A DNA stretch of 64,000 nucleotides from an uncultured virus (IMG/VR IMGVR_UViG_3300042866_001374) (IMGVR_UViG_3300042866_001374), one strand, 5' to 3'. Counted from the stretch's first letter, positions 7,021 to 63,502 are shown. The notes: generated by a model not told the origin, from the sequence alone. Made by a program: numbers and translations.

Positions 7021-7127
7021 TTGGTCCTCCTACATTTGGAAAATAAATTTGAAACAATTCGTCTGCTTCTTTATGTCGTCCTTGGTTTGTGAGTTTTTTC
7101 ACTTCTTCCAGAATTTTTTTCTTAAAC

Positions 7128-16717: not shown

Positions 16718-19003
16718 TCAATCAAATCTAGAAGACATATTATCTCTTGCTCTTTGAGCATCAGCACGACGTTTTGCAACTTTTTGTGCGGGAGATGCTG
16801 GAGCACCATATTGTCCTGCAGTAGGTGGTTTCTTACCAGGGACTTTCTTTTGTCCTCTTGGTTGAATAGCACCACCAGCACCCATCCTTCCAGCACCCAT
16901 GGTTTTGTGCATATGTCTCATTACTTTTGAATGAGTATCATCACCACCCATGGTTCCACCTTTAGTTACTGGTTTACCAGTTTTATAATCCTTACCCTTT
17001 TCTTTTTCATAACGATTTAATTCATCAAGTTCAGTCTCCTCTTGATATGCACTTTTACGTGTTGCTAAAATTCTTTCTAACTTTGCTTTAGCATTTAAAG
17101 TTTGCTGTTGTTCAGTGTCTTTTTGTTTTGGTGACAACGATGATTGTGGATCTACTGCTTCTTTTGCCTCAATTTTTTTAGCAATTTTATGTGCTTTTTT
17201 AATAGTCGATTTTTCTAGTGGTGGAGTGTCACCAGTTGACTTCATCGCTGCTGCCATACCGATTGCATAGGGTTCTCTTGCTGCTTCAGGAACACAATTA
17301 GGAACCTCTTTACCATTTTTAATTTTTGTTCCTCTAGCAACTTTACCAGGCCAACACTTACTAGCACCGACATTTTTACGTGCTTGTGCAAGATCTTCAT
17401 CAACTACATCACCTTCTGGTTCAAAAGATGATTTTTGAAGATGTGCTGCTGCTTTATATGCAGGGTTGCCTGACTTAAAGTTTTGCCATGCTTTAGTATT
17501 TCCAGTCTTATCTGCTTTGGTAACAACCATTCGGGTATCTTTTGGTTCCTTTTTTTGACCCCCATAAACGGCTTCATCCATCTCATAAGAATTTTTAAGG
17601 ACTTTGTGTGCTGCTTGTGCTGCTTTTGCAGTTGCCTTTACACCAGATGCTACTCCTTTACCAAATTCAGATGCACCCTTCGCTGCAACTTTTACTGCCT
17701 TACCAGCAGTTGCGGTTGCCGCTTTATGGCGCTCCATACCTTGCTGATATGCCTTAACAGCACCAAGAACACCTCTAGCAATCCTATCCTTTAAAGGTTT
17801 TTTAGCAGGTTGTTGCTTTTTGGCACTTGCAACAGCAGATTGTCTTTGCAGTGCTGCCTTCATTCCCGATGGTTTTGAAGAAGATGCCTTCGATTCAGAA
17901 TCTTTTCTTGCTTGCTTTTCTTTACGAAGTCTAGCAATAGCAGCAGTTTTTGCACCACCTTTAAGAGAACCTACAGATTTACCAGCTTTGGTTTTTGGTT
18001 CTACTCTTACCCCACCTGCTCTTGCTTCAGTAAGGATATATTCTTCAGACAATTCAAATACAAATTGGACAAAATCTTCGATACCAAGTTCTTCAATTAA
18101 AATATCTACTCCAGTAGAATTTAATCCTTCTTGATAAAAATACTCTGATGCAATATCAACAGATTCTAAAATACTTTCTTCTTTTAATTGTGGATTAATT
18201 ACAATTTTATTATTTACATTTTTCTCTGAAATTTTTTTAACATCACCATTTTTGGAATTTTGAATGACTTCATGAAGTTCATTTCTCCAATCTGAAAATT
18301 CTTCAAATGATTCTTTTCTTACTTTTTTATTTCTAGTGTCTTGCCCATTAGGAGTTCCACCAGTTGCTCTTTGAATAGCATTATGAACTGCTCCTGCATG
18401 TTCTTTACTTCCACTTTCAATCTTACCATCCCCATCATAATCCTTCTTTGCCTTTTTGCCACCTGGTTTATGTTGAAGAGCAGCAGCAGTTTGTTCACCC
18501 TTTTTCTTTTCACCCTCATATGGACTACCATATGAAGTTCCAGTTACAGATTGAATTTGAGGATTGGATCTCAGTTGATGAATTTTTGTTCTAGAAGCAT
18601 ATCTACGATATGGTTTTCCATATCCTTTTGCTGGAGTAACTAAAACTTTTTGCTTATCTTCTTCTTCAATTTGATCAACTTCTTCTTTAACTCCACCACT
18701 AAAAAGCATTGCCTTTGCAGCATCCTTAACTGGAGCTGATGCACTAGAATTTTGAAGTGCTTGAGTAAACGCTCTCTCTAAAGGAATACCTTCTCGTCTT
18801 GCCTTGTATCTTGTATCGTATGCAAGTTGTCTTGCTTGCTTTTTAATATTGTCTTCCCCGCCACCACCAGCAGCATCCTTTTTATCACCACCAGATCCGC
18901 TGGAAGATGCAGATGATTTGCCTAATTGAGGTTTAATTTTTGCTTCCATCTCAGTCAAGTAAACTTGATGGAGGTCTGTGATGATATGCTGTAGTTTTGC
19001 CAT
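16718..19003 (-). CDS. Large modular Lys/Ala-rich protein, probable internal head protein
   Basis: 761 aa; basic modules separated by acidic Glu-rich linkers; DYDGDGKIES and CWPGK…VPNCV modules. Confidence 0.7.
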   Translation of the reverse strand: MAKLQHIITDLHQVYLTEMEAKIKPQLGKSSASSSGSGGDKKDAAGGGGEDNIKKQARQLAYDTRYKARREGIPLERAFTQALQNSSASAPVKDAAKAMLFSGGVKEEVDQIEEEDKQKVLVTPAKGYGKPYRRYASRTKIHQLRSNPQIQSVTGTSYGSPYEGEKKKGEQTAAALQHKPGGKKAKKDYDGDGKIESGSKEHAGAVHNAIQRATGGTPNGQDTRNKKVRKESFEEFSDWRNELHEVIQNSKNGDVKKISEKNVNNKIVINPQLKEESILESVDIASEYFYQEGLNSTGVDILIEELGIEDFVQFVFELSEEYILTEARAGGVRVEPKTKAGKSVGSLKGGAKTAAIARLRKEKQARKDSESKASSSKPSGMKAALQRQSAVASAKKQQPAKKPLKDRIARGVLGAVKAYQQGMERHKAATATAGKAVKVAAKGASEFGKGVASGVKATAKAAQAAHKVLKNSYEMDEAVYGGQKKEPKDTRMVVTKADKTGNTKAWQNFKSGNPAYKAAAHLQKSSFEPEGDVVDEDLAQARKNVGASKCWPGKVARGTKIKNGKEVPNCVPEAAREPYAIGMAAAMKSTGDTPPLEKSTIKKAHKIAKKIEAKEAVDPQSSLSPKQKDTEQQQTLNAKAKLERILATRKSAYQEETELDELNRYEKEKGKDYKTGKPVTKGGTMGGDDTHSKVMRHMHKTMGAGRMGAGGAIQPRGQKKVPGKKPPTAGQYGAPASPAQKVAKRRADAQRARDNMSSRFD

Positions 19004-20852: not shown

Positions 20853-21485
20853 TTATAAAAATCCAACAGAATAATCTTTATCTGTAATATAATCTATACA
20901 CAGAACAGTTCTGCAAGATTTCATTTTATTCTCAACTCTATGTTTTGACATAGGGTGAAATATATAGAATGATTGGTTGATAAAAGATTTAGTCTCAACC
21001 TCACCATTATCATCCATTATTTGTATTATAGCATCATCTGGGTCATTTGGGTCAATGTCCAACCCCCAAATAATTCTAAGTAATTTAACACCTGGAATAT
21101 AATCTTGATCAATATGCCAATTTAAAAACTGTCCAGGGTCTAATGCATTAATTGCACAAGCATCAGTCAATCCAACTTCTAACAAAACACTCGTCAAGAA
21201 GGGTAACGCTGAGGTATTAAAAACCACAGGTGTTCTTTCAGCAAAAAGAGGCGCAAGATGCCAACCAAATTTAGAAGAATTTCTTTTTTCTGCAGAAAAA
21301 TAAGAGGAATATCCAATAGGATATCCTCTATTTTGTTTTTTAATATATTCGTTTTGCTGTTCAGTAAAATCTCTAAATTCTAACCTATTGAAGTTATTCC
21401 TATACTCTTCTAAAATTTTATTATAATTATCATTTAAAAGAGATAACTTTGGGTGAATATCTTGATAGGATAAAAATTTAGACAT
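20853..21485 (-). CDS. Aspartyl/asparaginyl beta-hydroxylase-like 2OG-Fe(II) oxygenase
   Basis: LDPGQFLNWHID (HxD), LRIIWGL, HRVEN…RTVLCID. Confidence 0.75.
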   Translation of the reverse strand: MSKFLSYQDIHPKLSLLNDNYNKILEEYRNNFNRLEFRDFTEQQNEYIKKQNRGYPIGYSSYFSAEKRNSSKFGWHLAPLFAERTPVVFNTSALPFLTSVLLEVGLTDACAINALDPGQFLNWHIDQDYIPGVKLLRIIWGLDIDPNDPDDAIIQIMDDNGEVETKSFINQSFYIFHPMSKHRVENKMKSCRTVLCIDYITDKDYSVGFL

Positions 21486-21984: not shown

Positions 21985-22013
21985 AGTTTATCAAAAATCA
22001 GGAATTTTGTCTA
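21985..22013 (-). promoter_or_regulatory. Sigma70-like promoter for mazG
   Basis: TAGACA-17 nt-TAAACT. Confidence 0.55.
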
Positions 22014-23221
22014 GTGTTGCCATAATGTATTACGGTAACCTCACTGGATTTAAACTTTCTCCAAGGGTCAACCACAATACTTCCTTTAGGTACGTCACAG
22101 TATAATTCATCACTTTCTGGAGCGTCCCAATATTTGTATGTAGTTGTTGCACTGTGCGCTAGTAGAAATACTGCAGGACTTTGTGGTTGATAATTGTCTC
22201 CAGTACAACTATCAACATATGTTGGAGATTTACCAAATTCTTCACAATAATGACCAACTAACAAACTATAACTTCCATCAAGATGCGATACTCTTGGTTT
22301 ATAAGATTTTCCATGAATGATAATTGGAAGATTATATTTGTTAGACAATTCAACAAGGTATTTTGCTAAGTTTTTAGCTTGACCTTCTCTAGAACCCATA
22401 ACAGATTCAAAAATATCATATCCAAGGTTTAATTTTTTAGACAGATATCTAAGAGCAATATTATCTCTTGGGTGACATGCACCACCATCACCCATCCCAG
22501 CAGTCATATAAGATGAGTTAATAATTCTTGTTCCTGCAGAACAGAGAGCATTTGTTACAATATCTACGTTAATATTTCCTTGGCGCATCGCAACATCTTG
22601 AATCATATTAACAAATCCAATTTTGGTGCTGATAAAAGTATTGTAAAAAACTTTAATACATTCACATTCATCCCAAGTTCCTACAAAATATTTTGGAGAA
22701 TTTTCCATGATTGTTTTGTAAAACTTGATAAGTTCTTTAGCATCTCCTGTTGTATTTCCATCTTCTGTACCAATCATAACCATTTCAGGATTTACCATAT
22801 CCCAACCAACTGTTCCCATGGCGATAAGATAGGGATTATAAACAAATCTTGCATTTGTCATTAATGGTTTGAACTGTTCTCTTGTTGTTCCAGGAAGAAC
22901 TGTAGAAATTAAAACCACCAACTGCCCATTTGCTACAGAATTTACTTGACTGAGGCATTGTTTGACAATTGAATAATCAAAGTCTTTTGGTTCCAAGTGC
23001 ATTGATGGTGTACTTCCATCATAATCTGGTTCATGTGGAGTTGGAACAGCAACAAAGATAATTTTACTTTTTTTAACTACTTCTTCTATAGAAGAACAGA
23101 TATTAATTAAATTACTTTTTTTAAATTCAATATCATATCCATAAACATTATGATTTTTAGCAGCAATCTCTGCTGCACATGGAAGACCCAATTTACCAAG
23201 CCCAATAAACCCAATGTTCAT
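21998..23221 (-). CDS. UDP-glucose/GDP-mannose dehydrogenase family protein
   Basis: GFIGLGKLG Rossmann motif, FVAVPTP, ISTVLPGTT, catalytic GDGGACHPRD. Confidence 0.9.
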   Translation of the reverse strand: MNIGFIGLGKLGLPCAAEIAAKNHNVYGYDIEFKKSNLINICSSIEEVVKKSKIIFVAVPTPHEPDYDGSTPSMHLEPKDFDYSIVKQCLSQVNSVANGQLVVLISTVLPGTTREQFKPLMTNARFVYNPYLIAMGTVGWDMVNPEMVMIGTEDGNTTGDAKELIKFYKTIMENSPKYFVGTWDECECIKVFYNTFISTKIGFVNMIQDVAMRQGNINVDIVTNALCSAGTRIINSSYMTAGMGDGGACHPRDNIALRYLSKKLNLGYDIFESVMGSREGQAKNLAKYLVELSNKYNLPIIIHGKSYKPRVSHLDGSYSLLVGHYCEEFGKSPTYVDSCTGDNYQPQSPAVFLLAHSATTTYKYWDAPESDELYCDVPKGSIVVDPWRKFKSSEVTVIHYGNTRQNS

Positions 23222-24183
23222 GCTTCTCTTTCCAAATCTAAAGTTACGCAGTGGAATCCTCCACTAAGAGTTCTTTGATGCCTCATTGGAAGCATTGCAC
23301 ATTCTATGCCATATGTTTCTAAAATTTTTCTAGTTGGATGTTGATGTTCTTCAAGAGCAACTAGATTTGGAGAAACACTAAACAAATTCATGTTACACCA
23401 CTCTGAGGCATTATTATAACCTGGATAGTATCCAATGTCTACTGGGTCTGGCGCATTGATAATTTCCCAAGTATTAAATGGATATGGAAGCATATCTCTA
23501 TGTTTTACTCTTGTTGGATTTACCATCATCAAACCCTCACGTAAAAAAGCTATAGTAGTATCAATATGAACAAAAGTGTAGATATCTTTTACAATCCTAA
23601 CTGTTGCAGAAGAACCCAGATTATTTTGTAGAATAGTTGCTCCAGCAACGTTACCGCTATTTGAGATTAAATACAAAACTTCTTCATTAGCACGAATTGC
23701 ATTTGCAGCATCAAATGCTGGGGTTAACTCAGTTAGTGCTAGTACTGAAGGATCACCAATACAAGATTCATCATATAAATCATCATGATATGAACAGGGA
23801 ATTTCTATTGTTCTTGGAATATGGTGAGAAAAAGACCTCCAATTACCTCTTCTTGCTCTCAAAGGTTGTGGAGTTGCCAAGGATAATTCACCATGAACAA
23901 ATACACAATCCCTTGGACAATAATTATAATATTTTGTAGGTTCTCTATTTGGTCTTAAAACTTCAACATTTTCACCAACTAAAAAATTACAAAAAGTTTC
24001 AAGATCTTCATTTGCCTCATCAATTACTTGTTGTGGATATAATCCCGTTTTAACATCAGATACATCTTGAATTCCAGCATAATTAATTGTCCTTAAACTT
24101 TTATCCATTGTTGGGATAGTTGCATGATCTGCAACACCAACAATAACTTTTTTTAGTTTATCCCATTCGTTTTTTGCGTACAT
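23218..24183 (-). CDS. Amidinotransferase (glycine / inosamine-phosphate amidinotransferase family)
   Basis: NEWDKLKKVIVG, CPRD, FDAAN, HIDTT, GGFHCVTLD (Asp-His-Cys triad). Confidence 0.9.
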   Translation of the reverse strand: MYAKNEWDKLKKVIVGVADHATIPTMDKSLRTINYAGIQDVSDVKTGLYPQQVIDEANEDLETFCNFLVGENVEVLRPNREPTKYYNYCPRDCVFVHGELSLATPQPLRARRGNWRSFSHHIPRTIEIPCSYHDDLYDESCIGDPSVLALTELTPAFDAANAIRANEEVLYLISNSGNVAGATILQNNLGSSATVRIVKDIYTFVHIDTTIAFLREGLMMVNPTRVKHRDMLPYPFNTWEIINAPDPVDIGYYPGYNNASEWCNMNLFSVSPNLVALEEHQHPTRKILETYGIECAMLPMRHQRTLSGGFHCVTLDLEREA

Positions 24184-24186
24184 AAT

Positions 24187-24987
24187 TCAACTCGTAGTTA
24201 AAACCATTTTGTGGTCATTTTCTTTTCCATATGTAAAGAAGTCATCTAATGTAAATTTTAGATGTTCCTTCATCCACCAATAATAATATGCACATCTAGA
24301 TTTTTTATGGTGAATTCTATTTATTTCTATACCAAACTCTGTGCTTGAAGATTTAATATTTGTGGTTATTAAAGGTATAGAATACGTTCTTCCAGTATGT
24401 CCGATGAGATAATCTACTGTTGTAGAACTCTTATTAAACTTATCAATTGATACAACTTTATCAAATCTATACTTATCTCCATAACAATGCAATTCTAAAA
24501 TTTTTTCAACGTATTCTCTAGTCAACATGACTGGTCCAAAATAACTATGTCTTAATTTTGGATGTAAAAAGAAAGGGATAAACTCTTCAGATTCAAATCC
24601 AAGTTGAATACAATCCCAATCATAGGGAAGTCTACTCATTAAGTAATTCCAATCAAAATTCCAATATTCAAATAAATTCAAATCATAGTCATCTTCCATT
24701 AACAACAAATAATCATCTTGTTTAGTATTAATCCACCGTTTAAGGAATTCTAAATGAGTAACCGCATTCCCTAAGGCATATGCAGGTATACCAGTTACTT
24801 TACCCACAACAAAGTCAGAACCCCATTCATTTAATTCAGAAGCTAGAAATTTAGATGCAGATACTCTTGTAAATTTTAACTTCCAGTAATCAAACTGGTC
24901 TTCCATATATTCTTTTCTGTCAATCCTATTGTCTAGATTAACATAATATATGTGAGGAAAATTATTAAATCTATTTTTTAAATCCAT
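24187..24987 (-). CDS. GT25-like glycosyltransferase, paralog 1
   Basis: YYVNLDNRIDRKEYM, RVSA, LLMEDD, LPYDWDCIQLG. Confidence 0.85.
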   Translation of the reverse strand: MDLKNRFNNFPHIYYVNLDNRIDRKEYMEDQFDYWKLKFTRVSASKFLASELNEWGSDFVVGKVTGIPAYALGNAVTHLEFLKRWINTKQDDYLLLMEDDYDLNLFEYWNFDWNYLMSRLPYDWDCIQLGFESEEFIPFFLHPKLRHSYFGPVMLTREYVEKILELHCYGDKYRFDKVVSIDKFNKSSTTVDYLIGHTGRTYSIPLITTNIKSSSTEFGIEINRIHHKKSRCAYYYWWMKEHLKFTLDDFFTYGKENDHKMVLTTS

Positions 24988-24992
24988 AACGA

Positions 24993-25793
24993 TTAAAAAT
25001 ACTTAGATACTTTCTTAATCATCCCAACGTCGTTTTGTTTTCCATATGTAAATATCTCATCAAAACTATGTCGTTTACTATCATTCCTCCACCAATCATA
25101 GTAAGCAAGTCTTGATGCTTTTGTAATAATATATCTTTTAGTTGTTTTATCAAAAAAATCTGTATGGTTTGGAAACATTGGCAAACAATATGTTTTTCCA
25201 CAATGTCCCAAAAAATAGTCTACTGTGCCAGACTTTAATCCATAATTTTTATTTGCAATATAGTTTGTAAGATTATATTTTTCTCCTACACAATGAAGTC
25301 TTATTAATTTTTTAACATATCTCCTATTAAGCATCGAGATGCCAAACGTATGAGCTGGCATGATTGGATGTAAGTAGAATGGAATATAATTTATATTCTC
25401 AAATCCAAGGAGTAAAGAATCCCAATCATAAGGAAGTCTACTCATTAAATATTCCCAATCAAATTGCCAATAAATTTCTAACCCAAAATCTAGAGTATCT
25501 TTAGAAATTATTAATCTATCTTCTTCAGTATTGTCATACCAATTTTTTAAAAACTCCAATACGCTAATAGCATAAGCTGCTGTAGGTATTGGTAATTTAT
25601 ATTCCTTTAAATTAATCAGTAGATTCTTCCATTCAGATACATTATCTTTTGTATATTTAATTGGTACTCTTTCATAATCTTGAACCCGCATATTACTTAG
25701 ATTACGATCCATATGCTCATCCAAATGAGCATGTTCATCATAGTTAAAATAATATACTTTTGGTATTCCTTTTAATTTATCTTTTAAATTCAT
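24993..25793 (-). CDS. GT25-like glycosyltransferase, paralog 2 (degenerate acidic motif)
   Basis: LPYDWDSLLLG and GTVDYF conserved; EDD position reads SKD. Confidence 0.75.
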   Translation of the reverse strand: MNLKDKLKGIPKVYYFNYDEHAHLDEHMDRNLSNMRVQDYERVPIKYTKDNVSEWKNLLINLKEYKLPIPTAAYAISVLEFLKNWYDNTEEDRLIISKDTLDFGLEIYWQFDWEYLMSRLPYDWDSLLLGFENINYIPFYLHPIMPAHTFGISMLNRRYVKKLIRLHCVGEKYNLTNYIANKNYGLKSGTVDYFLGHCGKTYCLPMFPNHTDFFDKTTKRYIITKASRLAYYDWWRNDSKRHSFDEIFTYGKQNDVGMIKKVSKYF

Positions 25794-25839
25794 AATAAGT
25801 TAGAAACTCTTCTCTACAATTCAGTACTTCTGTTCAAAG

Positions 25840-25847
25840 TATTTATC
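25840..25847 (-). promoter_or_regulatory. Late-promoter-like motif GATAAATA inside the GT25 array
   Basis: Located in the only sizeable intergenic gap of the island. Confidence 0.55.
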
Positions 25848-25863
25848 GTCCCATAGGGGGAAA

Positions 25864-26766
25864 TTATTTTCTAAAGTAGTCAAGATAAAGTTCCCCATAT
25901 AATTCTACACCTTTATTTGATATATCATATGTCCTAAACCTCTCAGGTTTTAAACTCATTCTCTCATGGTCATCTGATCCATATGTAAAAAATTGATCTA
26001 TAGAATACAAGTCTCGCTCATGTTGCCACCAAAAATAATAAGTATTTCTTGCCATAACATCACCCTCTTCTCTAAAAAATCTTTGGATGACACTATTATT
26101 TTCAAAACTTCCAAAATTTGGATTGATAGTAATTAAAGGTAAGCAATAAGTTCTTCCAGTATGCACCATAAAATAGTCAACTGTTCCAGATCCAGCAACA
26201 TCGTTTTGCCTATTCCATGCAGCATTACAAACAGTATTAACTAGTTTATATTGATCCCCAACGCAATGCAAATCTAATAGCTTCTCAACATAACCTCGAT
26301 TTAACAAAACTGGACCAAAGTCATGAGCTGGTTCAATTGGGTGCAAATGAAACTTCAATGCAGTTGGATTTTCAAATCCCATCAAAATGCAATCCCAATC
26401 ATAAGGCAATCTTTCTATAAGATCTCTCCAAGAAAAATGCCAACGTTCAATAAGTCCCAAATCATAATCATCTTCCATTAAAATAACATATTGGTCTTCA
26501 GTATTTCTATACCAATCCTTTAGAAAATCCAAATGTGTTATTGCATTTGCGGCAATTGGAACTAACAAGTTATATTCATCAATATCTTTTATTAAATGCT
26601 TCCACTTACCATTTTCAGATGCTAGATATTTTGTTCCAGAAACTCTAGAGTACTTTATACCATACTTATCAAATTGCTTAACCATCCAATTTTTTCTATC
26701 TAATCTATTATCCAGATTAAAATAGTTTACTAATGGCATCCCATCCAACTTACTTTTTATATCCAT
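25864..26766 (-). CDS. GT25-like glycosyltransferase, paralog 3
   Basis: YFNLDNRLDRKNWM, ILMEDD, LPYDWDCILMG. Confidence 0.85.
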   Translation of the reverse strand: MDIKSKLDGMPLVNYFNLDNRLDRKNWMVKQFDKYGIKYSRVSGTKYLASENGKWKHLIKDIDEYNLLVPIAANAITHLDFLKDWYRNTEDQYVILMEDDYDLGLIERWHFSWRDLIERLPYDWDCILMGFENPTALKFHLHPIEPAHDFGPVLLNRGYVEKLLDLHCVGDQYKLVNTVCNAAWNRQNDVAGSGTVDYFMVHTGRTYCLPLITINPNFGSFENNSVIQRFFREEGDVMARNTYYFWWQHERDLYSIDQFFTYGSDDHERMSLKPERFRTYDISNKGVELYGELYLDYFRK

Positions 26767-27641
26767 ATTAATAACCCTTCAGATTTATCCTTAAACACAT
26801 AAGGTTTTTTAGTGGATATATCAAACATTACCTCCATTCTCCATTCATCATTTTTATTATAATGAAAAAATTCAAATGCAGAATATGATTTACTTCTCAC
26901 ATTCCACCAGTATTCTGTAGCTTCTGAAGATAATTTATCAACCAAATCGTTAACAGTATCACTACCAATAAATTTTTCATTCAAAGAAAATATTGGCAAC
27001 GTATATGTTATTCCAATATCATAAAAGAAATTGTGCAACCCACCATACTCAAAATTGGGTATTGATTTATCTGGAGTAGTGTAATGAAGTAAAAATTTAC
27101 CATTTCTATAATGGTAATGCTTAATTCTTTTAGCAAAATAACGAGTAATCATGTAGCAATGACAAGACCCACTATCAGATTCCCATGGGTGCAAGTGCAT
27201 TTTTATTCTTCGTTCAGCAGAACTAAAAAGTTGAATACAATCCCAATTATATGGAAGATTTTTTGTTAATAAATCCCAATTAAAAAACCAGTTATTAACA
27301 ATATCAAACTTAATAATATCCTCCATAAAAATACAAGTCTCTGATTCATTTGAATCATACCAATCAATGATTGATTGTAAAGTATTTAAAGTTAATGCTA
27401 GTTCTGATGGAGACTGAACTAATTCTTTGTCCAAAACAAGATGCTTCCAATCATCATAGTTATCTTCACGGTATATCTTTCTATATCTACTAAAGTTAGA
27501 AATTCCCCAAGATTTAAATTGGTTCTGCATATATTCATTTTTTTCAACATCATCCTCATGATTTAAATAGATTATTTTAGGAATACCAACTAATCTATTG
27601 GTTATAGCATTACATGCTATTTCTAATTCTTCTTCAATCAT
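26757..27641 (-). CDS. GT25-like glycosyltransferase, paralog 4
   Basis: IFMEDI, LPYNWDCIQLF, HLHPW. Confidence 0.78.
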   Translation of the reverse strand: MIEEELEIACNAITNRLVGIPKIIYLNHEDDVEKNEYMQNQFKSWGISNFSRYRKIYREDNYDDWKHLVLDKELVQSPSELALTLNTLQSIIDWYDSNESETCIFMEDIIKFDIVNNWFFNWDLLTKNLPYNWDCIQLFSSAERRIKMHLHPWESDSGSCHCYMITRYFAKRIKHYHYRNGKFLLHYTTPDKSIPNFEYGGLHNFFYDIGITYTLPIFSLNEKFIGSDTVNDLVDKLSSEATEYWWNVRSKSYSAFEFFHYNKNDEWRMEVMFDISTKKPYVFKDKSEGLLIWI

Positions 27642-28516
27642 TTTGGCAACACCTTTTTATCATACTGTGGCAACTGTACTTGCATCATCTCATGAACAGA
27701 TCCACCATAACTCAGGATATCATCTGCAGTATATTTGTGACTATTATTTTCCCACCATTTTTTTATACATGATGTAGCCAAAATATCATAGATTTTATTG
27801 TGATATGCACTGATTATAGGATCATACTCTTCATCATTTTCTATATTTTCAATCTTATTATCTGGTGCAATAGCTAGTTTAGGATCTAAACAAAACAAAG
27901 GTAACGTGTAAGACTTTCCTATTTGATAGAGCAAAAAGTCATCACTACTATAGGATTCCCTAGGAACTTTCATATCCCTAAGACTATTATCAAGTTTAAA
28001 TGTGCCATCAGATTTTAAATGTACTTTGATTAGTTTTTCAACAAAAAATCTATTAACAATAAAACAAGCAGCAGAGGAACTATGCCACTCTCTTGGATGC
28101 AAATGCATCTTTAACACATGATCGTGACAATAATAAAATTGAACAATGTCCCAATTATACGGCAAACTCTTCATCACCATTTCCCAATCAAAAGGCCAAT
28201 ATTCAACTAAGTCAAAACAAAGGTCATCTTGAACTATCATGCAAACATCAGATATCCCAGACTCATACCATTCAATTAAGGTAGTAAATTCATTCATTAC
28301 AATTGATGCATCAGATGGTGCAAGAAGCATCAAATCTAATTTATGTGCCCATTCATCTATTTTTGCTGTTGAAAATCTAGAGGCAGAGACTCTAGTAAAA
28401 TCAGTTATTCCCCATTTTTTAAATTGACCCTCGATATGTTCTTTTCTATCCAATCTATGGTCTAGGTTCAAATAAAAAATAGGAGGCAAACCTTTTAATT
28501 TATTATCTAAATTCAT
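27638..28516 (-). CDS. GT25-like glycosyltransferase, paralog 5
   Basis: YLNLDHRLDRKEHI, RVSA, MIVQDD, LPYNWDIVQF. Confidence 0.82.
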   Translation of the reverse strand: MNLDNKLKGLPPIFYLNLDHRLDRKEHIEGQFKKWGITDFTRVSASRFSTAKIDEWAHKLDLMLLAPSDASIVMNEFTTLIEWYESGISDVCMIVQDDLCFDLVEYWPFDWEMVMKSLPYNWDIVQFYYCHDHVLKMHLHPREWHSSSAACFIVNRFFVEKLIKVHLKSDGTFKLDNSLRDMKVPRESYSSDDFLLYQIGKSYTLPLFCLDPKLAIAPDNKIENIENDEEYDPIISAYHNKIYDILATSCIKKWWENNSHKYTADDILSYGGSVHEMMQVQLPQYDKKVLPK

Positions 28517-29109
28517 TTTTTAAATACCTCCATATTAGGCAAGAAGGGATAATCCAAATATTGAAATCTTTTTGGTTTTTTAAATGCCACATCATTAAAT
28601 TTTTGAATGCCTAAAGATGCAGTTTCTGGCGTCATATAATAATGATAACCAATCATATCTATATTCTGTTCTCCCCATGGTTTATCGTTAGTTCTTCCAT
28701 CATAAACCATTTTTTTAAGCGTCGTATATGCCTCCTTATCATCCAATAATATAATTCCACCACGACCAAGATTTAAATGCTTCTTAAATTGAAAACTAAT
28801 GCACATATATGTACCAGGAATATATGTATTCTGCTCCCATAAAACCGCAGCATCAATTATATTAGTATTCCAAAGATAATAATAATCTGTCCAAATATAA
28901 TTTTTTTTCCATGTCCATTTTATACCCAATTTTTCAGCAGTAAATGGAATAGAAATATAAGTGTGCTCTGGTATTTGTATATCATTATACTTTTCATATC
29001 TAAGACATAACTCTATAGCATGAGTACAACAATCCGTTGCCACAGCATAAGGTGCATTAAAAAAATTAGATATTATTTTTTCAAACCTATTAACTACATC
29101 AAATTCCAT
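28513..29109 (-). CDS. Compact DegT/DnrJ/EryC1/StrS-family PLP aminotransferase
   Basis: YAVATDCCTHAIEL, IIDAA, SFQFKKHLNLGRGG (PLP lysine region), GYHYYMT. Confidence 0.82.
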   Translation of the reverse strand: MEFDVVNRFEKIISNFFNAPYAVATDCCTHAIELCLRYEKYNDIQIPEHTYISIPFTAEKLGIKWTWKKNYIWTDYYYLWNTNIIDAAVLWEQNTYIPGTYMCISFQFKKHLNLGRGGIILLDDKEAYTTLKKMVYDGRTNDKPWGEQNIDMIGYHYYMTPETASLGIQKFNDVAFKKPKRFQYLDYPFLPNMEVFKK

Positions 29110-29830
29110 TTTCATAAAGATTGTAATCCTCACTATACAAATTGTTAAATTCTTCTAAATCTGGTTCAACATAGTCTTGATATATTTTTTTACATATTGA
29201 ACTGTAATTGGGCATAAAATATTTTGAATTTCTTAAATGAGGAATTTCAAATGATTTATATTTTACTCTTTCAATATCATCTTGAATATTAGTTCTTATA
29301 AAATTATTAACTTTAAATGTCATATCTCCTTCCAATTTTATTAATTTAAGATTTCCTTTGTTCTCAAGACACAATCTTAGAAATAATTTTTGAGGAGCTG
29401 TATGTTCATCATAGATGTACTTTTTATTTTTAACTTGTTTAACAACCCATTCAATAGGTGGTTTATATCTACACATAAATTCATTCAATCCAGATATCCA
29501 TCTTTTAGTAGGATCCCTAGTAATTGCAAAGAATATATGTTCAGATTCTACAAAATATTGTGCTAAAAAATCTGGGTCTTTTGCTCTTGGTAATTTATCT
29601 AATGGGATGAAATTTGGACAATGAGCATTAAATGCTGTAGTAATAGAAGTACTACCACACTTATCAACATGCATAAAAACTAATTTATAATTTTTTGCCC
29701 AGTAGCAATTTACAAATCCTTCTTTATGAATAACTTGTCCATCTATACCTTTTTGTAACTTAAAAGTAAATGCAGAGCAATGTTTTGAACATTGTTCTAC
29801 AATATCATCTATGACTGCTCTTCTTTTCAT
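29099..29830 (-). CDS. Sulfotransferase (carbohydrate sulfotransferase-like)
   Basis: 5'-PSB HVDKCGSTSI, 3'-PB RDPTKRWISG, DEHTAPQ. Confidence 0.8.
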   Translation of the reverse strand: MKRRAVIDDIVEQCSKHCSAFTFKLQKGIDGQVIHKEGFVNCYWAKNYKLVFMHVDKCGSTSITTAFNAHCPNFIPLDKLPRAKDPDFLAQYFVESEHIFFAITRDPTKRWISGLNEFMCRYKPPIEWVVKQVKNKKYIYDEHTAPQKLFLRLCLENKGNLKLIKLEGDMTFKVNNFIRTNIQDDIERVKYKSFEIPHLRNSKYFMPNYSSICKKIYQDYVEPDLEEFNNLYSEDYNLYENGI

Positions 29831-30342
29831 ATCGTTGCTGTTATCTGCATTGTATATCTATTTTCATCTCCAAGGTTTGCTGCCATATGTGGTGCATCTC
29901 CTCTCCACATATAACAATCACCCTTCTTCCAATTAACAATTGGTGTTCGGTTCAATTCAAAATAATGCCCAGATTTCCAGTCATTTAAAAAGATTAAAAA
30001 TCTACACACATTATTTTGGTCTTCAATATTATATACCTTTCTATATCTAGGATACGTATCTTGGTGTTCTGGCATAATAGTTCCAGGTGGCATACAATAT
30101 ACGGACAAAGAAGTATTTTTTACTTGATGTTCCTTTTTAATTTCATTCACAATATCATGACACCATTGTGGAACTCCTCTATATTCTTCCCTTAAAAGAC
30201 CAGTATAGTTCACATACAAATGCCCCAATGATTTCCACCGATTAACGGTTTCATCATCAGGGAATTGTCTTCTATCTGGATATTCTATATTAGTATAATC
30301 TCCGATTATATCGGGATTTATGCTTTTTACTCTATAATTCAT
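29827..30342 (-). CDS. 2OG-Fe(II) oxygenase superfamily protein
   Basis: MPPGTIMPEHQD (HxD), PHMAANLG…RYTMQIT. Confidence 0.78.
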   Translation of the reverse strand: MNYRVKSINPDIIGDYTNIEYPDRRQFPDDETVNRWKSLGHLYVNYTGLLREEYRGVPQWCHDIVNEIKKEHQVKNTSLSVYCMPPGTIMPEHQDTYPRYRKVYNIEDQNNVCRFLIFLNDWKSGHYFELNRTPIVNWKKGDCYMWRGDAPHMAANLGDENRYTMQITATI

Positions 30343-30860
30343 TGTGGTAAATATATATTATTTTGATTTTTACTGTACCAACAAGGCAAAGTATACCTCT
30401 CACCACTTATTACTTTAGTGACTCCATGATAAGTACGAGAACTAAAAAATATTATTTTACCTTTTTTAGGGTTACATGTAAAGTTATCACTTGGGAAGTA
30501 TGTCTTTCCTCCAGTAAAATTATCGTTTAAATATAAAACAGAACTATAGTCTCGATGATTTTGGTCTTGATGAACTTCCATATCTATTCCAGGGAGCATT
30601 TGAACAATGCTCCAATATTCCAAATATAAATTTACATCTAAGTTATCCCTATAAAATAATTTAGATAAAGTTTGAATGGATTTAATTTGAAGTATAAGAA
30701 GATTGGATAATAGTATCTTATCTTCAACTAAGTAAGGACACAAAGTTTTATCTTCAAAATAACCTTCTAGATGTATATTCCTAAAATTAGTATTATTAAA
30801 GTATTTTACTAAGTCATCACATATAGACTCATCTAAAAAATTTTCTATTTCGTAAATCAC
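30339..30860 (-). CDS. Prolyl-4-hydroxylase-like 2OG-Fe(II) oxygenase
   Basis: HQD, LYLNDNFTGGKT, HGVTKVISGERYTLPCW. Confidence 0.88.
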   Translation of the reverse strand: MIYEIENFLDESICDDLVKYFNNTNFRNIHLEGYFEDKTLCPYLVEDKILLSNLLILQIKSIQTLSKLFYRDNLDVNLYLEYWSIVQMLPGIDMEVHQDQNHRDYSSVLYLNDNFTGGKTYFPSDNFTCNPKKGKIIFFSSRTYHGVTKVISGERYTLPCWYSKNQNNIYLPQ

Positions 30861-47628: not shown

Positions 47629-47775
47629 TTAAATATTTATGAAAAAAGAAGAAGCGTCTCGATTGAGACGCTTTTTAAGTGCTTGACGACGTGCCTTTGC
47701 TTGTCGGAGTGCTTGCGGTTTTAGTTTCCGCTTCTGCTCCTTTTTAGAGTGGTGTTGCCAATTGGGGGTGTTCAT
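47629..47775 (-). CDS. Small basic hypothetical protein
   Basis: MNTPNWQHHSKKEQKRKLKPQALRQAKARR. Confidence 0.55.
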   Translation of the reverse strand: MNTPNWQHHSKKEQKRKLKPQALRQAKARRQALKKRLNRDASSFFINI

Positions 47776-58994: not shown

Positions 58995-59009
58995 TATTTA
59001 GAATAAATA
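58995..59009. promoter_or_regulatory. Back-to-back late promoter motifs
   Basis: TATTTA-GA-ATAAATA gives TAAATA on both strands. Confidence 0.6.
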
Positions 59010-59034
59010 GATGACGGGTAAAATATATTTGATT

Positions 59035-59931
59035 ATGAGTTGTGATAAATTAAAAAATTTCCCTCATGTATTTTATTTTACTTTAGACAATGAAGTAAAA
59101 CGACAAAAATATATGGAGGAACAATTTAAATTATATGGCATTACATTTACAAAAATCTCAATGCCATTGGGGTTTCCAGAATACTTAAAGGAAAAAATAT
59201 TAGATGTTCATTCAGAATTAGCATCTAAACGATGTTTAGCATACAATTATTTTTTAATTGATACTTTAAGAAATTGGTATTTTGAAACAAATGAATCTTA
59301 TGTAATATTAATGGAAGATGATTATGATTTGAGTTTTATCAATCATTGGCATTTTAGTTGGGATGATCTATTAACATATCTTCCTTATGATTGGGATTCT
59401 ATACAATTGGGACATGAGTGCCCAGACATAGTTAGATTTTATTTGCATCCAGTTCAAAGTAATTATTCTCTTGGTCCAGTATTATTAAAACGAGAACATG
59501 TTGAAAAACTTTTGAATCTTTTTTATATCAATGGTAGATATAAATTTAATGGAGTTGTTGCCAACTCAATTTATATCAATAGAGAATCTGGAATAGGCGA
59601 TAATTATTTCTTTAACGATCTTGCAGGGACTCCAGATTATTTTTTATGTCAAACTGGGAATACGTATACTGTACCATTAATTCCATGTAATCCTTTTTTT
59701 AAAGGATCAACTCATGTTACTGAATGGTATCCAATGAAATCTTTTATTTGTTGTTATGAAGCATATAAAGAATGGTGGGAAAACGACAAAGATAATTTTA
59801 GTTTAAATGATTTTTTTAGTTTTGGTAAATCCAATGACAACTTAATGGAGAGAGATATTAGGCGATGGGACGATAAATATTTCCATCAAAGAGCAATCGA
59901 ACAACATAATAAGGTTATCTCTACGTTATGA
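59035..59931 (+). CDS. GT25-like glycosyltransferase, paralog 6
   Basis: YFTLDNEVKRQKYM, ILMEDD, LPYDWDSIQLG, YLHP, WW…FSLNDFFSFGK; alternative start 59011. Confidence 0.85.
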   Translation: MSCDKLKNFPHVFYFTLDNEVKRQKYMEEQFKLYGITFTKISMPLGFPEYLKEKILDVHSELASKRCLAYNYFLIDTLRNWYFETNESYVILMEDDYDLSFINHWHFSWDDLLTYLPYDWDSIQLGHECPDIVRFYLHPVQSNYSLGPVLLKREHVEKLLNLFYINGRYKFNGVVANSIYINRESGIGDNYFFNDLAGTPDYFLCQTGNTYTVPLIPCNPFFKGSTHVTEWYPMKSFICCYEAYKEWWENDKDNFSLNDFFSFGKSNDNLMERDIRRWDDKYFHQRAIEQHNKVISTL

Positions 59932-61733
59932 AAAATATATATTTTATCCAACCACAATATAGTGTTAATGTAAGAGACACTAAGAATTATTGGATGCCTT
60001 ATAGTGTTTCTTGCTTATGGAGTTATTGTAAACAATTTAAAGATATAGCAGAGTCATTTGAGTTAAAAGATATTATCTTTAAAAGAGAAAATCCAGAAGA
60101 ACTGCTAAAAAGATTAGATAATCCTACAATTTGTGCTTTTAGTTGTTACCTATGGAATGAACAATATAATCTACACCTTGCTAAACTAATAAAACAAAAA
60201 TATCCAAACTGCATTATTGAATTTGGTGGTCCCCAAGTAACCGCAAAAATGATGGAAGAAAATCCATTCATTGATTGTGTTATTCTTGGTGAAGGTGAAG
60301 AGGCATTTTTAGAATTATTGAGATGCATTAATACTGGAAATCCAATCAATAAAGTTCATGAAAGAACGAGGATAAATTCTTTAGACTTTAAAAGTCCCTA
60401 TCAATCTGGAGTCTTTGATTGGTTATATGATAAAAATCCAGATGTTATTTGGGCAGCAATTTTAGAAACAAATAGAGGTTGTCCTCACAGATGTACTTTT
60501 TGTGATTGGGGTGGAACAACTATGAGTAAAATTAATACATTTGGACTAGAGAGAGTCGCTGAAGATATTGAATGGATACGAACACATAGAGTTGCTTATG
60601 TCTTATGCGCTGATGCAAACTTTGGAATATTTAAAGAACGTGATATTGAAATAGCAAAAATGTTGCGTAAAGCAGCTGAAAATAGTTTAATTCTAGACAA
60701 TATAGATTTGCAGTATTCAAAAAATTCAAACGAATCTGCTTTTGAAATAGCAAAAATTATGGGAGAATACTCTAGAAGAGGAGTTACTTTGAGTGTTCAA
60801 AGTATGAATATGCCGACATTAAAAGCTATCAAGAGAAAGAATTTACACGTTAAAGATATTGCTGGACATGTAGAATTAGCAAAAAAACATAATGTAAAAT
60901 TATACACAGATTTAATTTTGGGGATGCCCGAAGAAACAGTAGATTCTTGGAAGGATGGAATTGATTTGTTGATGGAAAACGGGCAACATTTTTCTGTAGA
61001 CTCCTGGTTCTGCCAAGTATTTGAAAATGCTGAATTGGGTAGTGAATTTAGTAGAAAAACTTATGGTATAAAAACAATTAAAGCAGAAGATTATATATCA
61101 TTCTGTAATGATGAGTTTGATGCTACAAAAGAATATGTCGAATTAATTTGTGAGACTGATACAATGTCTAAACAAGACTTTTTTGATGCTCATATGTTTT
61201 CTTGGATAACAATTAAATTTCACTATGTTGGATACACACAAATTTTATCCAAGTATTGTCGCCATGTATTAGGAATAAGTTATAGAAAATTTTATGAATC
61301 ATTGTATGAATATACAATGAATGATTCTGGATTCTTAGGAACTGAGTTTAGGGAATATTTAAAGGCAATAAAGGAATACTTTAATACTGGAAAAGTTCCT
61401 TCTAACCACTCAAGTGGACATGGATTGGGAGTTGGTATGCCAAATGATACTTTATCTAGATTTGAAAATAAAGATAAGATACTAGATTTTGTTGAAAATT
61501 TTGCAAGGACAACTTTTAATATAGAAGAAAGTATCTTTGATATCCAGAGAAAGTTTGTTTATGACCCAGATGTAAATTATCCATATGTTGATAGTTTACC
61601 GTTTGACTTAGATACATGGGAAAAAAGAGATACAAAATATTCCATAGAAAATGAAAGAACCGAAGATGAAAGATATAATTTGTTCGTTATCAAAAGAAAG
61701 TATCTTACAAAAAATACAATGGTAAAACTATGA
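59928..61733 (+). CDS. Cobalamin-binding radical SAM enzyme A
   Basis: N-terminal B12-binding region (AFSCYLWN…IEFGGPQ), ETNRGCPHRCTFCDW (CxxxCxxC), DANFG, LILGMPEET. Confidence 0.9.
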   Translation: MKNIYFIQPQYSVNVRDTKNYWMPYSVSCLWSYCKQFKDIAESFELKDIIFKRENPEELLKRLDNPTICAFSCYLWNEQYNLHLAKLIKQKYPNCIIEFGGPQVTAKMMEENPFIDCVILGEGEEAFLELLRCINTGNPINKVHERTRINSLDFKSPYQSGVFDWLYDKNPDVIWAAILETNRGCPHRCTFCDWGGTTMSKINTFGLERVAEDIEWIRTHRVAYVLCADANFGIFKERDIEIAKMLRKAAENSLILDNIDLQYSKNSNESAFEIAKIMGEYSRRGVTLSVQSMNMPTLKAIKRKNLHVKDIAGHVELAKKHNVKLYTDLILGMPEETVDSWKDGIDLLMENGQHFSVDSWFCQVFENAELGSEFSRKTYGIKTIKAEDYISFCNDEFDATKEYVELICETDTMSKQDFFDAHMFSWITIKFHYVGYTQILSKYCRHVLGISYRKFYESLYEYTMNDSGFLGTEFREYLKAIKEYFNTGKVPSNHSSGHGLGVGMPNDTLSRFENKDKILDFVENFARTTFNIEESIFDIQRKFVYDPDVNYPYVDSLPFDLDTWEKRDTKYSIENERTEDERYNLFVIKRKYLTKNTMVKL

Positions 61734-63502
61734 AAAATCTTTACATGCTCCAACCACAATATGCGGTTGAAATTAGGAAAGAAGATACTTATTGGTTGCC
61801 ATATAGTGTCGGATGTTTATGGGCATATTGCTCACAGTTTGAAGATATAGTAAAAAACTACACATTAAAAGATCTCATATTCAGAAGAGAAGACCCAGAA
61901 GAATTAATTGATAGGTTAGATAACCCTGCAATATGTGCTTTTAGTTGTTATGTTTGGAATGAACAATACAATCTTCATGTAGCAAAATTAATCAAAGAAA
62001 GATTTCCAGAATGTATTATTGAATTTGGCGGACCACAAGCAACACATAGATTAAATGAATATGATTTTATCGACTGTATTATTGTATCAGAGGGTGAGGA
62101 AGCATTTTTAGATTTTTTAAGGAAAGTAAATAACAAAGAAAAAATTGACAAAATCTATGCAAAAAAAAGAATTGAGGATTTAAACTTTCCAAGTCCATAT
62201 CAAATTGGGGTATTCGATAAAATTATTGAAGACAACCCAGGTGTTTTATGGGCAATGACTATGGAAACTAACAGGGGTTGCCCTCATAGATGCACTTATT
62301 GTGACTGGGGTGGATTAACTTATACAAAAGTAAGGCACTTTGATATTCAAAGAGTTAAAGATGATATTGATTGGGCCAGGAAAAACAATGTTGGATTCAT
62401 TTTTAATGCTGATGCAAATTTTGGTATGTTTAAAGAACGAGATTTAGAAATTGCAAAGTTATTCAGAGAAGCAGCAGATGAAGGCAATCTTGAAGCAATA
62501 AACATACAATACTCTAAAAATTCTACTGAAGTAATTTTTGAGATAGCAAAAATACTTGGAGATATTAGTAGAGGTGTAACTTTAAGTGTACAAACCATGA
62601 ATGAACCAACACTTAAAGCAATCAAAAGAAAAAATATGAGTATTAATAAAATATCAGAACAAATTGAAAAAAGTAAAGAATATGGTGTAAAAACATATAC
62701 CGAATTGATTCTTGGTCTACCCGAAGAAACTTTAGATACTTGGAAAGATGGGTTTTCTAAAATTCTTGAATGTGGTCAGCACGAATCTATTGATGTTTGG
62801 TTTTGTCAAATGTTTGGTGATACTGAATTAAATAGTACTACTTCAAGGGAAGTTTATGGAATAAAAACAATTAAAGCGGAAGATTATGTATCTTTTGGAA
62901 ATGATAGAGATTATGATGGTGTTACTGAAACAATCGAATTAATCTCAGAAACTAATACAATGACAAATAATCAATTAATTGAAGCGTATATGTATGGATG
63001 GTTAATTGTTCAATTTCATATTGCTGGATATACTCAGATAGTTGCTAAACACTATTATGAAAATTTAAATATATCCTATCGGGTATTTTATGATACTTTA
63101 TTTGAATTTATTAAGTTGGATAATGGATTAATAGGTGAACATTATCGTGAGATTGAATCTGCGGTAAATCATTATATGAAAACTGGAAAAATATTGAAAA
63201 AAGGAAAGCATGGGCATACCTTACATGCGGGAAGTTTTGCTTTTATGTTTACGCATAAGGATGAAATTTTTAAACTCGTAGAGAATGCAACACAAAAAAT
63301 AACACCAATCAAAACAGATATTATATCTTTACAACGTGCGTTTATTTTTGACGAGGAGACTCAATATCCTTTTTATCTCACATGTGAAGATAAAAAGTAC
63401 AAAATAGATACTGAATTCAAATCATTTGATAAGAATGATCCTCATACTGTGTTTATTTTGCGGCGCAAAGGTCTATTGAAGAATCAATTATGTAAGGTTT
63501 GA
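61730..63502 (+). CDS. Cobalamin-binding radical SAM enzyme B (paralog of A)
   Basis: AFSCYVWN…IEFGGPQ, ETNRGCPHRCTYCDW, DANFG, LILGLPEET; ATGA overlap with A. Confidence 0.9.
   Translation: MKNLYMLQPQYAVEIRKEDTYWLPYSVGCLWAYCSQFEDIVKNYTLKDLIFRREDPEELIDRLDNPAICAFSCYVWNEQYNLHVAKLIKERFPECIIEFGGPQATHRLNEYDFIDCIIVSEGEEAFLDFLRKVNNKEKIDKIYAKKRIEDLNFPSPYQIGVFDKIIEDNPGVLWAMTMETNRGCPHRCTYCDWGGLTYTKVRHFDIQRVKDDIDWARKNNVGFIFNADANFGMFKERDLEIAKLFREAADEGNLEAINIQYSKNSTEVIFEIAKILGDISRGVTLSVQTMNEPTLKAIKRKNMSINKISEQIEKSKEYGVKTYTELILGLPEETLDTWKDGFSKILECGQHESIDVWFCQMFGDTELNSTTSREVYGIKTIKAEDYVSFGNDRDYDGVTETIELISETNTMTNNQLIEAYMYGWLIVQFHIAGYTQIVAKHYYENLNISYRVFYDTLFEFIKLDNGLIGEHYREIESAVNHYMKTGKILKKGKHGHTLHAGSFAFMFTHKDEIFKLVENATQKITPIKTDIISLQRAFIFDEETQYPFYLTCEDKKYKIDTEFKSFDKNDPHTVFILRRKGLLKNQLCKV

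Follow-up and report, generated by a model that had tools for sequence, protein, structure and literature searches.

A conserved, probably glycan-building gene cluster with a StrB1-like amidinotransferase in T4-like cyanophages

Large cyanophages carry dozens of sugar genes, and the target of these genes, whether the host envelope, the virion or the phage DNA, has been asserted rather than tested. This question is raised again by a 64,000-nucleotide stretch of DNA from an uncultured virus (IMG/VR IMGVR_UViG_3300042866_001374), hereafter the window, in which an island of sugar genes on the minus strand (21998-30860) lies between gp41 and mazG and includes a putative arginine amidinotransferase together with a putative sugar aminotransferase. 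What would such enzymes make, and on what would the product be placed? Our analysis finds that the island is a viral glycan-building cluster, conserved and without prior characterisation. We consider it likely that its chemistry is that of a guanidino-sugar glycan and, if so, we lean towards the virion as the target of this glycan. The full reading, in which one cytoplasmic pathway would build a glycan of guanidino sugar and uronic acid, sulfated and C-methylated, on the phage's own particle, is held tentatively, at slightly under even confidence. A literature search with most subscription papers outside its reach returned no description of a viral guanidino-sugar pathway and a single relevant match, the paper on cyanophage S-SCSM2R. 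The window comes from a T4-like cyanophage, whose DNA polymerase shares 85.5% identity with its counterpart in S-SRM01, the closest cultured phage by this gene; a complete relative with the same island, G002, encodes two photosystem reaction-centre genes.

The island and its conservation

The interval is filled exactly by eleven open reading frames (ORFs), which follow gp41 in the order 2-oxoglutarate (2OG) oxygenase, AspH-like oxygenase (hereafter the cupin), sulfotransferase, DegT-type aminotransferase, five glycosyltransferases (GTs; GTa to GTe), amidinotransferase and dehydrogenase, and are then followed by mazG. At the ten junctions neighbouring genes either overlap by 4-35 nt or lie 3-5 nt apart, with the sole exception of a 70-nt gap before GTd. 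These ORF calls agree with the eleven tightly packed, often overlapping genes of the original prediction, whose premise that gp41 and mazG are normally near neighbours is also borne out in S-SRM01, where gp41 directly abuts mazG. The same prediction described the block as AT-rich, which is true against gp41-gp43 (30.8% versus 35.0% GC) but not against the core stretch gp46-uvsW, which has 29.1% GC. Because these core genes are equally AT-rich, composition is no sign of a foreign island, and AT-richness as a mark of foreign origin was ruled out.

Searching a viral collection with the amidinotransferase gave 187 relatives, from which 80 loci were kept; 41 of these, in 21 clusters at 95% identity, were assigned to the window's layout. 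All ten genes from the cupin to the dehydrogenase are present in 35 of the 41 loci, and the remaining six are incomplete where they end at contig edges. A script scored the gene order as the same in 32 of the 35 complete loci and did not name its three exceptions; in three loci (L035, L036 and L067) a second dehydrogenase, 26% identical, lies upstream and upsets the order test. The predicted co-occurrence and fixed order in related phages are therefore observed. In comparisons with four relatives, all ten genes have a ratio of nonsynonymous to synonymous substitution rates (dN/dS) of 0.03-0.19 and are by this measure under purifying selection.

The eleventh gene, a 2OG-Fe(II) oxygenase of 173 aa next to gp41 (30339..30860, minus strand; PF13640, E 7.8e-12), behaves differently. 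Among the 34 loci spanning gp41 to the cupin, the same gene is found in four, all from near-identical phages, while the other loci have an unrelated oxygenase of 28-37% identity (4/34), another gene (4/34) or nothing (22/34) at this junction. From its distribution, this oxygenase is a passenger outside the conserved set. The proposal that two oxygenases hydroxylate an acceptor does not correspond to a conserved logic, because the gp41-side oxygenase is seen in only 4/34 loci and the conserved oxygenase tracks the amidinotransferase. A collagen-type pair of hydroxylase and GT was ruled out on the same ground, and because a 390-aa oxygenase that precedes the second array type described below matches solved structures weakly, via its C-terminal 2OG domain only. 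A further AspH-like 2OG oxygenase at 20853-21485 (minus strand), just after mazG, is found in many, but not all, island carriers.

The amidinotransferase also occurs in other layouts. In a second layout, as in S-SCSM2R, GTs, the aminotransferase, the cupin, the amidinotransferase, a GT and a carbamoyltransferase stand behind small fibre-like genes, and a third layout includes a dehydrogenase, other transferase-like genes and radical S-adenosylmethionine (SAM) enzymes. The neighbour labels 'GT10-like', 'SGNH-like', 'WbuC-like' and 'fibre/collar-like' are ones that we take from motifs, as Pfam gave no such name. A broader search with the amidinotransferase clade, which largely repeated the loci of the first search, gave 394 matching stretches from the viral collection, and on this count we take the trait to be common in aquatic viruses. 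The clade is viral, its best bacterial relatives being 33-38% identical. Of the bacterial loci, the best 80 of 212 were scanned; the amidinotransferase lies there beside genes resembling those for nonribosomal peptide synthetases or beside other genes, in none of the 80 beside a relative of the aminotransferase, and a bacterial origin of the module was rejected, as 0 of these 80 have relatives of the aminotransferase, the cupin or the GTs. One bacterial copy, in a Frankiaceae metagenome-assembled genome (L099), has a carbamoyltransferase gene on one side and a Tc-toxin-like (TcA) gene on the other. In Campylobacter phage CP220 (L086) a distant amidinotransferase (24%) is accompanied by radical SAM enzymes and two GT-A enzymes, an analogous tailoring cluster. 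Some viruses have two amidinotransferases (L247; L073:1913-3160; S-SCSM2R ORF266).

Aminotransferase, amidinotransferase and associated enzymes

The aminotransferase (28513..29133, minus strand; PF01041, E 1.7e-14) is a predicted DegT/StrS-type sugar aminotransferase dependent on pyridoxal phosphate (PLP). At 206 aa it has about half the usual DegT length and lacks the full two-domain chain of about 360-400 residues, and we call it mini-DegT. The fold-type I PLP site, with its Schiff-base lysine and pyridine-binding aspartate, is nevertheless present: Asp94 and Lys118 (88 and 112 in alignment numbering) are invariant in 73/73 sequences. The search scored 8000 sequences, 7956 of them relatives, with lengths of 194-207 aa among the matches listed (n=120), and the best profile matches include perosamine synthase. 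The model, with a predicted local distance difference test (pLDDT) score of 95, aligns 185 residues with the sugar aminotransferase WlaRG (Z 19.2, root mean square deviation 2.7); the 195 modelled residues span positions 27-313 of the 359-residue WlaRG, so that about 100 internal residues are missing and about 45 more at the end. Since its listed relatives have much the same length, the PLP lysine and aspartate are invariant and the model fits sugar aminotransferases, mini-DegT is not a broken gene and is, on these comparisons, a minimal aminotransferase family of about 200 residues.

The 321-aa amidinotransferase (23218..24183, minus strand) is a predicted StrB1-like L-arginine amidinotransferase. 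Its match to StrB1 (PDB 1bwd; E 1.6e-56, 195 bits) is much better than that to glycine amidinotransferase (E 2e-29, 106 bits). Asp, His and Cys form the catalytic set of the five-module amidinotransferase (pentein) fold, and the corresponding D158, H206 and C312, aligned with 1bwd and 1jdw, are invariant in 23/23 sequences. Around query positions 140-155 the enzyme aligns with StrB1 without gaps, where the human glycine enzyme has two insertions. By these comparisons it is closer to StrB1 and lacks the active-site insertion of the glycine enzyme.

Its gene context points in the same direction. Among the 80 amidinotransferase loci, mini-DegT is present in 74, the cupin in 73 and a GT25-like gene in 70. 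We also assembled loci from mini-DegT, taking 80 of the 594 found, of which 39 have the amidinotransferase and 41 do not. Cupin and amidinotransferase occur together in 35 of these 80 loci and are both absent from 38, with either alone in only four and three; where 5 kb is available on both sides (n=50), the cupin accompanies mini-DegT in 22/24 loci with the amidinotransferase and 2/26 without it. A scan for amine-capping enzymes, which covered 83 of 98 neighbour ORFs, found a transferase of the N-acetyl, N-formyl or GNAT kind no more than 4 kb from mini-DegT in 12/41 loci without the amidinotransferase and 0/39 with it. Close GDP-mannose dehydratases show the same division (19/41 versus 0/39). 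As N-acyl transferases and dehydratases replace them elsewhere, the amidinotransferase would take the place of the amine-capping enzyme, and the cupin would stand in for the ketone maker. We therefore suggest that the amidinotransferase probably caps an amino sugar as a guanidine; the predicted pairing of a StrS-type aminotransferase and an amidinotransferase on such a substrate is consistent with this context. Not every array has the pair: four loci (L187, L192, L195 and L197) combine six GT25-like genes with mini-DegT but show no cupin and no amidinotransferase within range.

The cupin (29827..30342, minus strand; 171 aa; PF05118, E 1e-4) is the core AspH-like 2OG-Fe(II) oxygenase. Its H93-x-D95, H152 and R162 are invariant in 35/35 sequences, its relatives in the Atlas fall in virus-only clusters, and a profile search against the PDB gave nothing significant. 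We propose that it would make the keto group. An NAD-dependent epimerase/dehydratase beside gp46 (47744-48487, minus strand) is an alternative keto-sugar source in the window. The dehydrogenase (21998..23221, minus strand; 407 aa; Pfam E 2.5e-18) belongs to the UDP-glucose/GDP-mannose 6-dehydrogenase family, and by family function would make a nucleoside diphosphate (NDP)-uronate. In one virus (L218) the cupin, a domain that we read as transferase-like and the dehydrogenase form one protein of 968 aa; at L207:1562-4681 and L218:8572-11478 the dehydrogenase is part of large fusion proteins that also have transferase-like and either methyltransferase-like or cupin domains. The sulfotransferase (29099..29830, minus strand; 243 aa; PF03567, E 2.5e-7) is of the Sulfotransfer_2 family, has a dN/dS of 0.12-0.15, is specific to the window's array type and gave no significant match against the PDB.

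Glycosyltransferases and the second locus

The family assignments of the original prediction stand for the dehydrogenase, DegT, sulfotransferase, oxygenases and amidinotransferase but are less straightforward for the GTs. None of the five reaches the Pfam gathering score for GT25 (PF01755; best 18.1 of 24 bits), and all belong to phrog_2835 (E 1e-26 to 1e-44). The fold was tested on GTe, the only GT folded alone, whose model (pLDDT 91) has as its nearest folds mimivirus R655 (Z 15.3), COLGALT1 (Z 13.9) and a bacterial GT25 (8xc8, Z 12.9); in a search of 48161 chains these, with two COLGALT1 entries, are the top four, and the next has a Z of 10.8. The claim of five GT25 glycosyltransferases is thus supported as to fold, by the GTe model, while the Pfam cut-off is missed and two of the five are probably non-catalytic.

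These two are GTb (26757..27641, minus strand), a probable pseudoenzyme with decayed donor and metal motifs, and GTd (24993..25793, minus strand), a probable partner subunit in which EDD is replaced by K/R-D-T and the dimer surface is kept. The N-terminal donor motif and EDD are kept in GTc (25864..26766, minus strand; donor positions 100% conserved in 29 sequences), in GTe (24187..24987, minus strand; EDD in 29/29) and in a sixth enzyme, GT6, described below; both are lost in GTb and GTd. GTa (27638..28516, minus strand) has QDD instead of EDD in 28/28 sequences, and its activity is uncertain. According to PMC12003778, COLGALT1 depends on the first and the third acidic residue of EDD, both of which are essential. 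GTa is the most conserved paralog (dN/dS 0.03-0.04), followed by GTd (0.05-0.10) and GTb (0.09-0.13). In a quick tree of 84 representatives each position in the array forms its own clade.

Modelling of GTe with GTd gave a score of 0.88, the best of three controls reaching 0.00; the mark for this score is reached by 116/157 solved pairs and 2/215 mismatched pairs. Contact agreement between runs was 96%, with a pLDDT of at least 91 for the partners. In GTd the interface is more conserved (0.87) than the whole chain (0.68) or the donor site (0.61), and GTb shows the same ranking (0.67, 0.57 and 0.50). The model supports a dimer surface kept in GT paralogs that are probably dead, although it does not tell which partner binds which. 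COLGALT1 contains two paired GT domains, one catalytic and one structural, as described in PMC12003778, where the island has separate paralogous genes. The island GTs share with COLGALT1/GLT25D1 and mimivirus R655 the fold and the EDD metal motif but differ in having 19% identity to them and no identified collagen acceptor.

GT6 (59011..59931, plus strand; phrog_2835) lies in an inverted cassette between the portal gene (gp20) and gp21. In the quick tree it nests among the in-operon sixth GTs of other phages, with a support of 100 in the Shimodaira-Hasegawa-like approximate likelihood ratio test; by this placement it is the island's sixth GT, relocated 28 kb away. GT6 is followed by two cobalamin (B12)-dependent radical SAM enzymes of 601 aa (59928..61733, plus strand) and 590 aa (61730..63502, plus strand), both PF02310+PF04055 and both with a B12-binding domain and a CxxxCxxC radical SAM domain, for which methyl transfer is predicted. 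The first has the C-methyltransferase TokK as its best PDB match (E 2.8e-74) and is a probable C-methyltransferase. Relatives of the second are found inside amidinotransferase arrays of other viruses (e.g. L077 and L223), and the pair is also present in the island carriers G002 and G003; it was not found in three partial records of other layouts, nor was a match seen among cultured cyanophages. The pathway therefore probably includes GT6 and both B12 enzymes of the locus at 59011-63502. In most of ten B12 loci an unclassified protein (63453-64000, minus strand; 220 aa in relatives) without a Pfam or PHROG match lies between the portal gene and the B12 pair.

The proposed product and its possible target

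In the pathway that we favour, the dehydrogenase would oxidise an NDP-hexose to an NDP-uronate, the cupin would convert a sugar carbinol to a ketone, mini-DegT would transaminate this ketone, and the StrB1-like enzyme would move an amidino group from arginine to the new amine. Three or four active GT25-fold enzymes would add the sugars in turn, working as dimers with the two motif-less paralogs as partner subunits, as modelled, and the sulfotransferase and two B12 radical SAM enzymes would decorate the chain, with tailoring either on the nucleotide sugar or after transfer. A bolder version is that this widespread cyanophage lineage coats its virion with a self-made zwitterionic glycan of guanidino sugar, uronate, sulfate and C-methyl groups, assembled by combinatorial heterodimers of GT25 enzymes and pseudoenzymes and drawing on aminoglycoside-type chemistry, a half-size PLP aminotransferase and a 2OG oxygenase in place of a dehydrogenase; we find it doubtful that all of these hold together. 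The island would also provide a minimal sugar aminotransferase of about 200 residues, a route to keto sugars that may run through an oxygenase, and a naturally occurring set of GT pseudoenzymes retained for their dimer surface.

The preference for the virion comes partly from promoter-like motifs. The consensus of the cyanophage late promoter is given as NATAAATA (PMC2984593); we counted (A/C)TAAATA, the C variant being our own addition. In the window, ATAAATA lies at 25840..25846 (minus strand), in the 70-nt gap, the only sizeable one, ahead of GTd, GTe, the amidinotransferase and the dehydrogenase, and at 59003..59009 (plus strand) directly before GT6. The motif precedes GTd in 15/20 phage clusters and every other gene in only 0-4 of 14-21; it precedes 1/5 in-operon GT6 copies and, in the second layout, the small fibre-like genes in 22/22. 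A strict TATAAATA motif was not enriched, and a scan for sigma-70 promoters and terminators gave no excess over shuffled sequences (87 versus 89 and 8 versus 6). One RNA run, with a word share of 0.06, contigs mostly 85-95% alike and 27/30 bins touched, shows neither transcription nor timing. Searches for a C5 methyltransferase or a ThyA-family hydroxymethylase matched 0/5 relative records, of which one (G002) is complete, with the controls detected; G002 encodes ThyX, and among its 120 scanned ORFs of at least 140 aa there are no base-modifying genes but adenine methylases. A TET/JBP dioxygenase search also matched 0/5, with its controls silent too. Based on the late motif, the lack of membrane proteins and the lack of a cytosine methylase or hydroxymethylase in G002, we favour the virion over lipopolysaccharide (LPS) or DNA; of the three targets named at the outset, DNA is a weak candidate, since G002 lacks genes for a base handle. 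Virion glycosylation, with a glycan on capsid or tail proteins that disappears in GT mutants, is known in mycobacteriophages (as cited in PMC12619734).

Several observations weigh against this pathway and its target. The co-occurrence counts lack phylogenetic independence, as most of the loci without the amidinotransferase belong to a single clade, and the profiles used for N-acyl transferases derive from the very loci that they separate. Some amidinotransferase loci have a distant (20-25%) dehydratase or epimerase, and G002 has a GDP-mannose dehydratase elsewhere in its genome, which would allow the ketone a source other than the cupin. In two loci (L054 and L071) the amidinotransferase has neither mini-DegT nor the cupin in its vicinity. 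The GTe-GTd interface is near-symmetric and built from residues common to all paralogs, and close cousins pass the test; it may therefore be a homodimer surface. No late motif precedes the first seven island genes, which continue directly from gp41, and read-through from gp41 presumably serves these genes upstream of GTd. The 'fibre-like' genes of the second layout are a reading from sequence, with no Pfam match, and no acceptor protein or sequon was identified. A 761-aa low-complexity Lys/Ala/Gly-rich protein at 16718-19003 (minus strand), with tandem late motifs and variable in relatives, is a possible acceptor, but its relatives are also found in S-SRM01.

With the same chemistry, the glycan might instead be attached, on the cytoplasmic side, to the host envelope, either to the LPS core or to some other surface glycan, giving receptor masking or a change in charge. 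The combination of dehydrogenase and DegT resembles the 4-amino-4-deoxy-L-arabinose (Ara4N) route to lipid A, and bacterial GT25 enzymes, as the Pfam name says and the fold match to 8xc8 recalls, are galactosyltransferases of LPS or lipooligosaccharide. Such a role has been proposed in cyanophage sugar-gene papers, although their available text offers no test. We consider this explanation unlikely, as the block has no membrane-bound transferase, flippase or signal-bearing protein, none of the 14 proteins examined has a membrane segment, and the late motif would leave little time before lysis. The phage clusters annotated for 'LPS / cell wall modification' in P-SSM2, S-SCSM1 and Bellamy are related but distinct. 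They have a single-copy GT of phrog_2835, the same family as the island GTs, found in 98 phage records, and in Bellamy the same dehydrogenase (57%) adjoins it. The island phages differ in adding six diverged paralogs, while their ordinary single-copy GT stays in another sugar cluster, apart from the island. The cyanomyovirus cell-wall clusters also lack the amidinotransferase, which among 13 matching records is found in one cyanophage.

Another explanation is a diffusible aminoglycoside-like small molecule, a guanidino, carbamoyl and C-methyl oligosaccharide directed against competitors, other phages or host defences. StrB1, DegT, carbamoyltransferase and B12 radical SAM enzymes do make up the aminoglycoside toolkit. 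The streptidine branch (StrB1, 1bwd; DegT-type StsC) follows the same logic from keto group to amine to guanidine, and StrB1 is the best solved relative of the island enzyme, with the same catalytic residues and the same loop deletion relative to glycine amidinotransferase. However, the island differs in its half-size aminotransferase, six GTs, dehydrogenase and sulfotransferase. The streptidine pathway has an inositol dehydrogenase, kinase and phosphatase beside the aminotransferase and amidinotransferase, and none of these three was found among the 11 island genes or 64 neighbour representatives scanned. The island thus borrows streptidine-like chemistry and is not a member of the streptidine pathway. 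A small molecule is improbable in our judgement, given that the same scan met no cyclitol dehydrogenase, exporter or resistance gene either, that mini-DegT otherwise occurs in ordinary glycan clusters and that the six GT25 paralogs are of polymer type. In those clusters of other viruses the mini-DegT family sits, as in perosamine-type routes, with GDP-mannose dehydratase and N-acyl transferases (acetyl or formyl), whereas in the island the amine cap would be an amidino group and the conserved oxidant neighbour is a 2OG oxygenase.

Antibiotic synthesis has also been suggested for the closest known array, that of cultured phage S-SCSM2R (ORF302-310; PQ898602; BMC Biol 2025, PMC12801897). This array resembles the island in mini-DegT (55%), amidinotransferase (66%), a small oxygenase and four GT25-like genes; it differs in standing behind fibre-like genes with a radical SAM enzyme and a GT2, and in lacking the sulfotransferase and an adjacent dehydrogenase. 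In the available text of the paper three genes are named 'antibiotic synthesis genes' and the GTs are counted as cell-wall genes, with no pathway or test. The original prediction knew of no characterised phage pathway with this combination; a related array does exist in a cultured phage and in print, but it was not read there as one pathway. One S-SCSM2R amidinotransferase, ORF266, was detected in a virion preparation (PMC12801897). A guanidino sugar would offer a sharp handle, as it is rare, can be labelled from 15N-arginine and is readily seen by mass spectrometry, and the cultured S-SCSM2R has a sister array.

The genes might also be a stable accretion of two or more functions, in which the substrate of the amidinotransferase would be an amino acid or an amine on a protein, while GTs, oxygenases and sulfotransferase would have purposes apart from it. 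In its favour, oxygenases and sulfotransferases are scattered through these genomes, one island oxygenase is a passenger, mini-DegT is without the amidinotransferase in 41/80 loci, and GTe-type arrays without it exist in the four loci named above. We give it only a small chance in view of the fixed order and overlap over 21 phage clusters, the recurrence of the trio in three or more unrelated layouts, the fused protein of L218 and the mutual exclusion with N-acyl transferases. Hypermodification of the phage DNA with a guanidino glycan that blocks restriction is very improbable: the island does lie among replication genes with read-through from gp41, phage GTs are reported to glycosylate DNA with diverse sugars and the passenger oxygenase has a faint Tet_JBP match (E 0.0013, far under the cut-off), but G002 encodes ThyX and has no C5 methyltransferase or ThyA-family hydroxymethylase, GT25 terms are absent from the two DNA-glycosylation papers searched for them, and four of the six GTs are acidic (net charge -10 to -12).

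A few minor observations concern other genes. One cyanophage, G002 (L329, L332 and L339-L341), has three carbamoyltransferases and a second sugar cluster with a GDP-mannose dehydratase, GT11, GT6, a nucleotidyltransferase and a single-copy GT25. In the window, a 776-aa protein with an autotransporter beta-barrel domain is encoded at 3879-6209 (minus strand), with a late-type motif upstream at 6355, and separate lysozyme and C39 peptidase genes (6352-7799, minus strand) match two halves of one PHROG family, 3617.

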